Source of the DNA: Vermamoeba vermiformis
Taxonomy: Eukaryota
Reading direction: 5' to 3'
Length of the DNA stretch: 64,000 bases
NCBI GenBank assembly: GCA_045837725.1
Contig: JBEWZL010000013.1
Coordinates: 434,001-498,000 of the forward strand
The translations under genes were made by a program, and so were the position numbers. This document shows, in pieces, positions 15,478 to 30,885 of the stretch. The notes below the pieces were generated by a model. The model saw only the letters and a list, made by a program, of their open reading frames with translations, was not told the origin of the DNA and did no database searches. How positions within the stretch are numbered: the stretch's first letter is position 1; every line of letters begins with the position of its first letter.

Positions 15478-17710
15478 ATGAAAAATACGCTTTTAACATG
15501 TATATTTATTTTTTGTTGTATAGCATGCAGTAAGTGTGAAGAATGACGTTAACCTAATCAAAATAATTAATCGCGGATGGATCTCGCAATTTTTTGTTAC
15601 AATAACCAACCCGATTTTAAATATTAAATATGTATCGTAGGTTTTGAGTTAATTATATTGGCACCAGAAGAGATTGCAGGAGAAGTAAGTCCGGTGTGGG
15701 CCATTTCTTGTCACATCTATTTATTGCCTTAAATTACTTGATACAAACATGATATTAATCAGCATTAATAGGTGTTCAATAGTCCTCGTCAATCTTTAGT
15801 AGGACCTCGAGATTGGTCCTTTAGCGTCACCGGTCAACTGGCTTTTGGAAATGACTCCGATCCCGCCAACAAGTACGTCAACTTAACCTCGACAATAGGG
15901 TCGTGTCAATACACTATAATCATATTATAATCATCGGCCAATATTGCATGATACCCTCGTGTTTGGCGCAGTAAATCGTTGATGGCGATCCATTAATGGA
16001 TCTGTCGCGAGACTAATCCGTTAAATTAGAAAACTGAAACATTTATCTCCGGATTATATGCGCCACGGTATTAATAATAGAATTATTAGGATAGTAATGA
16101 TACGCAGCACTTCCGGAGATCAACAAACTGCTCGCGACTTTAAGGATAAATCACCTGCTGCTATAATTAGCTTGCAAATGGCAGCGAATGGTACCAATCG
16201 CCATAGCCTTATATAGTTATTTAGGATTTATATTGATTGATTTAATGCATAGTCAACTACACGGGACTCGCCGCTTATAATTGGGACGGTACATCCACGA
16301 GGGACATTGAAATCCCGATGGTGATCATATCAAAGCCGAGTGCAGAGAGATTATTTGAATATATAGCCAAATATGGAAATGTTACTGTCTTAATTACATC
16401 AAACGGTATGTTCAAAAAAAATTCAAAAATTTTAATTGATCGTCGCGAATATACTAAGCAAATTAATTAATAATTTACATCTATATTTAGATACCAATCC
16501 TTGGACGGAGTTATTCACGTCACCAGCGATGATAGCCTTTTCAGTCATTCAACCAATTTTGATCGCAGGCAATATCGCGTACGCAATCTACAAACAGTTC
16601 AAATGGGTCTCAATTAAAGGCTGGGAGCGATCTATTCCACAGACTGTATTGTGGTTTGAACTCGTGGCTAACTTGCGTAAGTCTGGGACCAGATCCACTG
16701 ATTGACATTTTGACACTTTGACACTTATGAACCCTTTACGATCGTCCGTTCCAACTTTCATTTTACACTCAAGTTCCAGTTTGACACGTGTCATTTGTTG
16801 CAAGCATCTCATTGACACGTGTCAAGTTTGTTACTACAATTTTCTCCGTTTCTTCAAGCTTCTTAGAACAAACCTTATAATTGATAAGTGCATGTTGGAC
16901 TAATATTATATGACTCCTATAGTGCGATTCCTGGCCGTCGTTGTGGATCCGCTGCAATCGCGCGTCATTTTTCCAGTCACGTTGAACCTCATGTTGTACA
17001 CTCTCAGCTGGCCGTTCAGCATCATGAGCTTTTTGCTCATATCATTCTACTGGTACACAATGACACCTATATTATGTTAGTATAGTTAATTGACGTCCTA
17101 TTCTCCAGGCATGAGTTGATCCGCAAGCTCAAGATCCAACTAAACGTGTTTTTGGATAAATTAAGAATAGTCTTTTGGGTCGTATTTGGACTATTATTGG
17201 CACTAGAACTCGCGACGGCAGTAGCACGTGGCTTGGCATTTGCAGTCGGAACATTTGTGATGGTCAGCGGAATAATTTACATTGTTGTCGTGCTGGCGAC
17301 TGTCGCGTTCTTTTTCACGACGGGAATTCGTTTGATGATCATGCTGAATAAGACTAAAAAGGTCATGTCTTCGCCTGAACACCGCATGCAACGTGTCAAA
17401 CGCGTAAGTTAATCTCACTTCCAAATAAGGAAAAAAATCTAACCGATCCATTTGACAGGCGACGGATCTGATCTTTTTCAGCAGCTCAGCGCTGGTTTGT
17501 TGGGCAGCCATGGTGGCAGTTGGAGGCTTGTCTAATCTACTATGGGTACCCTATGGTTTCTATTCAATATGGTTCGTAGTCTTCACGCTCTTGTCACTCG
17601 TGAGCTGTGCGCAGATCTCAGCCTTCACGGTGCCCACACACGCCAAGTCTAGCGGCTCTTCATTGATGTCAACAACTCCGTCGAAGAAAGACAAATCATT
17701 CAATGTGTAG
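15478..17710 (+). CDS. Signal peptide + PA-like ectodomain + seven-TM (GPCR-like) membrane protein
   Basis: Hydrophobic N-terminus MKNTLLTCIFIFCCIAC; ectodomain KIVMIR...IPMVIISKPSAERL; about 7 hydrophobic segments from 16500 to 17630. Confidence 0.7.
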
Positions 17711-17841
17711 AATAAAATGTAAATAGTACAATAAAAAACAGTGTAAAATAGATATCATAAGCTAGTCGTGGTTTGAGTGCGTTAGCGATCCAGGGACTGA
17801 CTCGATCCAAGGCCAGGAGCAAGCCAAAAAAAAGTAAGAAT

Positions 17842-17912
17842 AGGCGCCACCAAGAATCGAACTTGGACGATCGACTCATGAGACCGAGGCTCTACCACTA
17901 AGCTATGGCGCC
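17842..17912 (-). tRNA. tRNA with CAT anticodon (nominal Met), atypical identity
   Basis: GGCGCCA TA GCTT AGTGGTA GAGC C TCGGT CTCATGA GTCGA TCGT CCAAG TTCGATT CTTGG TGGCGCC T. Full cloverleaf with A and B boxes and a downstream T8 terminator. Confidence 0.85.
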
Positions 17913-17940
17913 GTTGTTCAAAAGTTAAGGGGCGAATCGT

Positions 17941-17950
17941 ACGAGGTCGT
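17941..17950 (-). promoter_or_regulatory. Putative Pol III upstream element ACGACCTCGT
   Basis: Ends 28 nt upstream of tRNA(CAT); variants precede both other tRNAs. Confidence 0.6.
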
Positions 17951-18082
17951 TAAAAAGACAGACATAAACCAGACAAGACTCATTGCAATGAGTATGAAGC
18001 AAAAAAACTCAGCCTTTTTCGGGTGATCTCAGCCATGGTGGGACGAGGAAAAAGAGGAGAATGAGGACAGGACAAAAAAGAA

Positions 18083-18156
18083 TGGCCATTCCAGGGATTG
18101 AACCTGGGACCCCCGGCTTATTAGACCAGTGCTCTAACCAACTGAGCTAAACGGCC
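18083..18156 (-). tRNA. tRNA-Ile(AAT)
   Basis: GGCCGTTTAGCTCAGTTGGTTAGAGCACTGGTCTAATAAGCCGGGGGTCCCAGGTTCAATCCCTGGAATGGCCA, followed by a T-run. Confidence 0.95.
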
Positions 18157-18184
18157 CTTGTTGAGTGCTGACCGAGCCAACTGA

Positions 18185-18194
18185 ACCAAGTCGT
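18185..18194 (-). promoter_or_regulatory. Putative Pol III upstream element ACGACTTGGT
   Basis: Ends 28 nt upstream of tRNA-Ile, the same spacing as for tRNA(CAT). Confidence 0.6.
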
Positions 18195-18316
18195 CGAAAA
18201 GTCAAACCTGCTTAATGCGTCGTTTTGCTTTTGATCTTTATGACAGGATTAAGAACTACTTTGCAACTTTGAGACGATAAAAGTTAGGTGCCACCACGGC
18301 CGCAAAAGCCCGTTAA

Positions 18317-30614: not shown

Positions 30615-30768
30615 TGTGCAATATTTTAAACAAAAAAAGATTTCAAATTTGACAGAAGACATTTGCTCAAAGTCGACGGCGTTCAGTTATTTTTGAAACA
30701 AAATATCGCAGATGTAAGACGGCTAAATTGCAACAGGAAAGGAAGATAAAGCAAAAAATAAAAAGAGA

Positions 30769-30840
30769 AGGTTCTGACCGGATTTGAACCGGTGACCTAA
30801 AGATTTGCAGTCTTCCGCTCTGCCGCTGAGCTACAGAACC
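30769..30840 (-). tRNA. tRNA-Cys(GCA)
   Basis: GGTTCTGTAGCTCAGCGGCAGAGCGGAAGACTGCAAATCTTTAGGTCACCGGTTCAAATCCGGTCAGAACCT; U73; downstream T-runs. Confidence 0.96.
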
Positions 30841-30875
30841 TTGAGTGGACGAGCCGGCAAGAAAAACAAAGTCAT

Positions 30876-30885
30876 ACCAGGTCGT
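30876..30885 (-). promoter_or_regulatory. Putative Pol III upstream element ACGACCTGGT
   Basis: Ends 35 nt upstream of tRNA-Cys; matches the element of the other two tRNAs. Confidence 0.55.

Follow-up and report, generated by a model that had tools for sequence, protein, structure and literature searches.

Elongator tRNA-Met reads AUG with a weak A1-U36 pair that is stabilised by t6A at A37, and A37 and the discriminator A73 are among the most constant features of tRNA-Met. The eukaryotic initiator tRNA-Met is characterised by A1-U72, by an anticodon stem that closes with three G-C pairs, and by A54/A60. A54 is likewise given as an initiator feature in PMC9023262. tRNAs reading ANN codons carry t6A37 'almost without exception' (PMC5372738). 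In Eukarya, methionine identity is determined by C34, A35, U36 and A73 along with tertiary interactions, and A73 is almost strictly conserved across the domains (PMC9976931, Tables 1 and 4). MetRS recognises the CAU anticodon; the E. coli enzyme charges a tRNA-Val carrying CAU as well as native tRNA-Met and mischarges tRNA-Thr(CGU) and tRNA-Arg(CCU) through their anticodon nucleotides (PMC9976931). The anticodon is also a major determinant for CysRS (GCA) and ThrRS (G35/U36). Cys identity depends on G34, C35 and A36 together with U73, the major Cys discriminator, which alone gives minihelices Cys identity, and the eukaryotic Thr set consists of U73, G1-C72, U3-A70, G5-C68, G35 and U36 (PMC9976931, Table 1 for Thr). 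A G at position 37 beside U36 has been reported for human mitochondrial tRNA-Ile, in which the A37-to-G change is deleterious and TRMT5 methylates the G to m1G37 (PMC7826259). The literature searched, which did not extend to subscription journals and supplements, contained no account of G37 or U73 in a cytosolic tRNA-Met of a eukaryote.

Here, we describe a CAU-anticodon tRNA gene that has both. The window, by which we mean the whole 64-kb stretch of DNA analysed, is eukaryotic (alpha-tubulin, UFD1, F-box/LRR and Kelch domains; about 40% G+C) and contains three tRNA genes, all on the minus strand, which ARAGORN names Met(cat), Ile(aat) and Cys(gca) and to each of which the Rfam tRNA model aligns at full length (Table 1). 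Homologue searches yielded 5 hits for the 581-aa F-box/LRR ORF, while UFD1 led to clusters of mixed Eukaryota or giant-virus membership and alpha-tubulin to generic clusters. The CAU gene and the tRNA-Ile gene lie antisense within a gap of ~600 nt between two plus-strand multi-exon genes, and a search allowing up to 3 mismatches to the first 37 nt of the CAU gene found no second copy in the window. We consider it probable, with some reservation, that this is a functional nuclear elongator-type tRNA gene, which is transcribed by Pol III and belongs to a small conserved family, and whose product is charged by MetRS, carries G37, probably as m1G37, and reads AUG.

Table 1. Positions of the CAU tRNA gene, its putative transcription signals and the neighbouring tRNA genes in the window
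Feature	Position	Strand	Basis
tRNA gene, 71 nt, class I	17842..17912	-	ARAGORN, Rfam RF00005 and direct reading
CAU anticodon	17878-17880	-	direct reading
G37	17877	-	direct reading
Discriminator U73	17842	-	direct reading
A box TAGCTTAGTGG (tRNA nt 8-18)	17895..17905	-	direct reading
B box GTTCGATTC (tRNA linear nt 51-59)	17854..17862	-	direct reading
T8 run, probable Pol III terminator, starting 8 nt past the tRNA 3' end	17826..17833	-	direct reading
Upstream element ACGACCTCGTA, -38..-28 of the CAU gene	17940..17950	-	motif match
Upstream element ACGACTTGGTT before tRNA-Ile, -38..-28	18184..18194	-	motif match
Upstream element ACGACCTGGTA before tRNA-Cys, about -45..-35	30875..30885	-	motif match
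Canonical tRNA-Ile(AAU), 170 nt upstream of the CAU gene, same strand	18083..18156	-	ARAGORN and Rfam
tRNA-Cys(GCA), A37 and U73, comparator for a Cys-like body	30769..30840 (ARAGORN: 30767-30841)	-	ARAGORN and Rfam

The CAU gene is an intact, well-formed eukaryotic tRNA gene and not an initiator. ARAGORN calls tRNA-Met (cat) at this position, and Rfam RF00005 matches it from model position 1 to 71, that is at full length, with a score of 61.2 bits (E 8.1e-11; gathering threshold 29). The acceptor stem consists of seven Watson-Crick pairs (GGCGCCA/UGGCGCC), the D stem GCUU/GAGC includes a U13-G22 wobble and encloses a 7-nt D loop (AGUGGUA), and the T arm reads CCAAG-UUCGAUU-CUUGG. The anticodon stem is formed by U27-A43, C28-G42, G29-C41, G30-U40 and U31-G39 and hence contains two G-U pairs, the anticodon loop CU-CAU-GA provides G37, and the variable loop UCGU has only 4 nt. 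With the canonical core (U8, A14, G18G19, U33, G53-U54-U55-C56 and A58) in a full cloverleaf that scores above the gathering threshold, the gene belongs to the tRNA family. It departs from the eukaryotic initiator in having G1-C72 and U54 and, at the loop end of the anticodon stem, the wobble pairs G30-U40 and U31-G39, so that the stem holds only two G-C/C-G pairs (C28-G42, G29-C41) as compared to the initiator's three consecutive pairs by the loop. An earlier note on this DNA had described the same stems, boxes, T8 run, anticodon loop, discriminator, wobble pairs and variable loop and the absence of initiator features, and each of these details is read in the sequence. Set against the eukaryotic elongator tRNA-Met, the gene has the CAU anticodon (C34, A35, U36), but U73 in place of A73 and G37 in place of A37, the substrate for t6A37. 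The earlier note regarded these two deviations as running against the norm, with which the published generalisations agree (PMC5372738, PMC9976931).

The cloverleaf of the CAU tRNA is calculated at -20.0 kcal/mol and its minimum-energy fold at -27.8 kcal/mol, a gap of 7.8 kcal/mol, whereas the cloverleaf of tRNA-Ile is its minimum-energy fold and that of tRNA-Cys lies within 1.1 kcal/mol of the minimum. In the predicted alternative, the segment G37-A43 (GAGUCGA) is paired to UCGAUUC of the T loop (window 17854-17877, minus strand). We also observed that the anticodon loop and its closing base, CUCAUGAG (window 17873-17880, minus strand; tRNA nt 32-39), form a perfect 8-nt palindrome with G37. 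Owing to G37, CAUG is self-complementary, and two such tRNAs could pair via CAUG unless G37 is N1-methylated. N1-methylation would block this self-pairing as well as the G37 pair of the alternative fold.

By sequence, the gene has the layout of a type 2 Pol III gene, with internal A and B boxes and a T run downstream. In the upstream regions, the 11-nt motif ACGACYTNGTW has three matches in the 64 kb as compared to 0.41 expected, and 0/100 shuffles had at least three matches, a count that overstates the significance because the motif was built post hoc from the same three upstream regions. All three matches in the window are located upstream of its three tRNA genes, on the tRNA strand, and nowhere else; this fixed register and the absence elsewhere in the window are informative all the same. 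In addition, about 50 nt upstream of the CAU gene and of tRNA-Ile can be aligned without a gap, and the loose end of a contig from another organism (X7, organism B), which contains the CAU tRNA, carries the same upstream element. The gap-free alignment and the register of the motif therefore indicate that the CAU gene has the upstream signals of two canonical tRNA genes, and they bear out the earlier note's observation of an element common to the CAU gene and tRNA-Ile, which is found at -38..-28 in both. Possibly, ACGACYTNGTW is an upstream promoter element for Pol III that is specific to this lineage; no description of it was found in the literature searched. A scan for bacterial promoters and terminators found nothing and is irrelevant to a Pol III gene.

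Two RNA runs with the same species label, a soil metagenome (X4) and the run from organism B (X7) were mapped to positions 17650-18249. The RNA runs contributed 10 and 8 reads, none of which was at least 99% alike and all of which lay only partly on the stretch; no read in either of them matched the window's own copy. At base 17869, A is present instead of G in 7/7 RNA reads and throughout the depth of X4 (5.5/5.5) and X7 (4.34/4.34). This base corresponds to position 45 in the variable loop of the tRNA, with U instead of the window's C; C45 did not occur in any of the four runs mapped. Flank differences are located at 17834, 17919, 17923 and 17924 in the RNA reads and the X7 contig, and also at 17835 and 17839 in X21. 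The seven RNA reads covering 17869 all join the variable-loop variant with six flank differences, and all mapped RNA reads continue into sequence unlike the window. Due to the fact that the reads over the tRNA carry the letters of a sibling copy, in both orientations and with the flanks included, they do not demonstrate Pol III expression. As a separate observation, reads of the RNA runs at 18083-18112 agree with tRNA-Ile(AAU) over no more than its 30 3'-terminal nt and diverge beyond them, which indicates that a further tRNA gene in another part of the genome has its T arm and acceptor 3' strand in common with tRNA-Ile.

The gene is conserved in other organisms and is present in more than one flanking context. 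Inside the tRNA, the X7 and X4 contigs differ from the window only at the variable-loop base, while their flanks diverge, and in X4 two different trailers (records 3 and 4) follow the same variant tRNA. A metagenome scan with a pattern made up of the D arm, six free letters and CTCATG gave 110 loci. One of these, L008, is 70/71 identical to the CAU gene and has the same U45; its flanks are unrelated to the window beyond its own T run, and homology ends just past that run. The same pattern had a single match (L111) in a scan of viral contigs. These alignments point to an essentially invariant 71-nt gene in at least two, probably three, flanking contexts, which may all be paralogues of one genome or in part orthologues in close relatives. 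Judged from these alignments, the CAU gene is not a one-off defect; it belongs to a small family whose members are nearly identical and are conserved among related organisms.

We give a small chance to the explanation that this copy of the gene is inactive or in decay, or that it is a repeat derived from a tRNA, and that it plays no part in translation. The gap between cloverleaf and minimum-energy fold, two departures from near-universal Met features and the missing reads for the window's copy would fit a gene in decay. However, its stems, boxes and terminator are all intact at a score of 61 bits, the promoter-like element is common to canonical tRNA genes, and the tRNA has been kept in L008, X7 and X4 while the flanks diverge. 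Furthermore, homology stops at the terminator without a SINE body, so the CAU gene is not a SINE. The earlier note had proposed looking for the gene in relatives and had named cases that would speak against its interpretation. One of these, an ordinary multi-copy tRNA of the lineage, gains partial support from the near-identical copies in several flanks and other organisms.

As CAU is present and both GCA and G35 are absent, MetRS is the expected enzyme. U73 may lower charging by MetRS, unless the MetRS of this lineage has adapted. The earlier note suggested that the tRNA might be mis-acylated at AUG codons. We consider it very improbable that CysRS or ThrRS partly charges the tRNA via U73, with Cys or Thr put at AUG, although U73 is sufficient for Cys identity on minihelices and is also listed for eukaryotic Thr (PMC9976931). 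The anticodon determinants of both enzymes are missing, the body is unlike that of the window's tRNA-Cys (see below), and the conservation of a tRNA in several copies would presumably be costly if it miscoded at every AUG. A dual-identity tRNA is scarcely more probable; in it, CAU would recruit MetRS, and a second synthetase would charge some of the molecules by way of G37 and of U73 with G1-C72, the discriminator context of Cys and Thr. If true, AUG would be decoded ambiguously in this eukaryote, as a form of regulated mistranslation. G37 in place of A37 makes t6A impossible on this tRNA, and since TRMT5 makes m1G37 in human mt-tRNA-Ile, we infer that the CAU tRNA would carry m1G37 as well. 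The harm done by the mitochondrial change and the distance of the predicted cloverleaf from the minimum-energy fold call for caution on this point.

The earlier note had also taken the body of the tRNA to be non-methionine and felt reminded of tRNA-Cys by G37. To assess the body, 25 class I reference tRNAs were used, namely the window's tRNA-Ile and tRNA-Cys, the copy in L008 and those class I tRNAs that belong to the eukaryote-type arrays on the metagenome contigs L001 and L034. Identity was scored over 48 columns outside the searched pattern and the anticodon, as a crude stand-in for isotype-specific covariance models. It amounted to 0.98 for L008, 0.60 for the L001 Met, 0.58 for the window Ile, 0.56 for the L034 Met and 0.44 for the window Cys, in a set without Thr, His, Pro and Gln tRNAs and with two CAU references (L001, L034) pre-selected by a pattern that fixes D arm and loop. 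The CAU tRNA of L001, which has G37, A73 and a 5-nt variable loop, shares most of the anticodon arm with the CAU gene, and the two T arms, which the search pattern left free, are identical in 17/17 nt. When the four eukaryote-type CAU/G37 tRNAs are compared, 96.4% of cells agree with the cloverleaf, and 9 pairs are changed on both sides. Within this small reference set, the body of the CAU gene is thus closest to eukaryote-type CAU tRNAs and tRNA-Ile and not to Cys, which lends no support to a non-methionine body. Nor does the likeness to tRNA-Cys in G37 hold for this genome, as the window's own tRNA-Cys has A37. The CAU gene also combines U73 with CAU and not with the GCA of tRNA-Cys. Since no tRNA-Thr was in the set, the comparison argues against a Cys-like body and is compatible with a Thr origin.

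Such an origin would mean an anticodon shift (alloacceptor remolding), in which a tRNA-Thr(CGU)-type gene or one of another isotype gained CAU and G37 and is now an extra Met isodecoder charged by MetRS. We regard this as unlikely, but with more in its favour than decay. The CAU gene has 3/6 of the eukaryotic Thr determinants (U73, G1-C72 and U36), a single change leads from CGU to CAU, and among 30 eukaryotic alloacceptor shifts Met/Thr is the sole pair besides Asn/Lys seen more than once (PMC3923123). However, the remaining three Thr determinants U3-A70, G5-C68 and G35 are replaced by C3-G70, C5-G68 and A35. As Thr tRNAs also read ANN codons, A37 is expected in them and G37 requires a second change. 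The identical T arm and similar anticodon arm of the L001 CAU tRNA likewise favour an elongator-type CAU tRNA over a shifted one, with the reservation that the reference set is without tRNA-Thr.

One might also speculate that the product of the gene decodes AUA through a modified C34, like the tRNA-Ile(CAU) of bacteria, archaea and organelles. In the window as in L034, a CAU tRNA gene follows immediately after tRNA-Ile(AAU), and some of the CAU/G37 tRNAs abundant in DPANN archaea could be tRNA-Ile2. Against this, L034 carries its own tRNA-Ile(UAU), the identity rules do not favour such a decoder, and the eukaryotic cytosol is not known to have a lysidine or agmatidine system; we therefore consider this the least probable of the explanations, and an elongator-type tRNA-Met remains our preferred reading.

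The scans led to several side observations on CAU/G37 tRNAs elsewhere. L034:90-1515 is a dense array of 9 eukaryote-type tRNA genes including Ile-AAU, with introns in Ile-UAU and Leu-CAA, in which the CAU/G37 tRNA directly follows Ile-AAU, as in the window; a tRNA with UUA anticodon in the same array would read the stop codon UAA. L001:516-2354 holds 19 eukaryote-type tRNA genes in about 1.8 kb of a 2.35-kb marine contig, a packing that points to either a giant virus or a nuclear array of an unusual kind. On high-G+C contigs (0.63-0.69; e.g. L019, L024, L041, L045-L047, L072, L083, L085, L088 and L106), the pattern opens a tRNA-like 5' half (GGCGGAGTAGCTCAGTGGTAGAGC...CTCATG). ARAGORN calls no tRNA in the sequence that follows, and these halves may belong to a tRNA split by an intron or to some other tRNA-like element. 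Low-G+C contigs account for most of the 110 metagenome loci. In the scan of species genomes, 20 of the 27 records (L112-L138) have archaeal titles (Woese-, Pace-, Nano- or Parvarchaeota, or archaeon alone), and the other 7 are bacterial. Many uncultivated DPANN archaea thus possess G37 in an elongator-type CAU tRNA, often with an intron (most of L002-L110; L112-L138). These tRNAs are either tRNA-Met or agmatidine-type tRNA-Ile2, and in both cases they would be an exception to the rule that archaeal tRNAs for A-starting codons have A37 (PMC7668247). Beyond general tRNA features, the DPANN CAU/G37 tRNAs are unrelated to the CAU gene.

Taken together, we propose the following model for the elongator-type CAU tRNA. 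Pol III would transcribe the gene from its internal A and B boxes, probably assisted by the lineage-specific upstream element in common with the neighbouring tRNA genes, and the T8 run would end transcription. Because CAU is the dominant Met determinant, the mature tRNA would most likely be aminoacylated by MetRS and would then read AUG in elongation, with G37, probably methylated to m1G37 by Trm5, in place of t6A37. The near-identical family in related organisms suggests that the gene either supplies the lineage with its elongator tRNA-Met or is a second isodecoder that has been stably kept. That the family provides the only elongator tRNA-Met of the lineage, in which case AUG would be decoded in the absence of t6A37 by a tRNA to whose U73 MetRS has adapted through co-evolution, is a tentative proposal, which we hold for more likely than dual identity.

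The interest of the gene lies in the fact that both A37 and A73 are replaced in an otherwise functional-looking gene, which is conserved in several copies and organisms, and it hinges on the presence or absence of a canonical tRNA-Met beside it in the genome. Should the CAU tRNA serve as elongator tRNA-Met in this lineage, it would be a natural test case for AUG decoding without t6A37, for m1G37 beside U36 in a cytosolic tRNA and for the co-evolution of the discriminator preference of MetRS. If it is only a minor isodecoder, it would be one more case of tRNA gene drift.

With regard to known systems, the CAU tRNA resembles the eukaryotic cytosolic elongator tRNA-Met(CAU) in its anticodon, class I cloverleaf, T loop with U54/A58, C32 and U33 and type 2 Pol III anatomy. 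In contrast to it, the CAU gene has G37 and not A37/t6A37, U73 and not A73, and a variable loop of 4 and not 5 nt (PMC5372738, PMC9976931). In the mismatch between its anticodon and the positions 73 and 37 expected for the isotype, it is similar to the eukaryotic alloacceptor shifts, including Met/Thr, of Rogers and Griffiths-Jones 2014 (PMC3923123), but here the family is conserved across organisms and has CAU throughout. The human mt-tRNA-Ile m.4295A>G also places G37 directly 3' of U36 in a tRNA reading ANN, where TRMT5 forms m1G37; whereas that is a pathogenic mitochondrial point mutation, G37 is fixed in a conserved nuclear family here (PMC7826259). The DPANN archaeal CAU/G37 tRNAs have the same loop, CUCAUGA, and the same U31-G39 closing pair, but differ from the CAU gene by A73, a 5-nt variable loop, their archaeal contexts and frequent introns. 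Lastly, the tRNA-Ser(CAG) of CUG-clade yeasts reportedly also has an unexpected G37 beside an anticodon for a codon of another amino acid, and is said to combine it with a Ser body and a SerRS that ignores the anticodon. Unlike in these yeasts, the synthetase expected for the CAU tRNA, MetRS, reads the CAU anticodon, and no codon reassignment is therefore implied.
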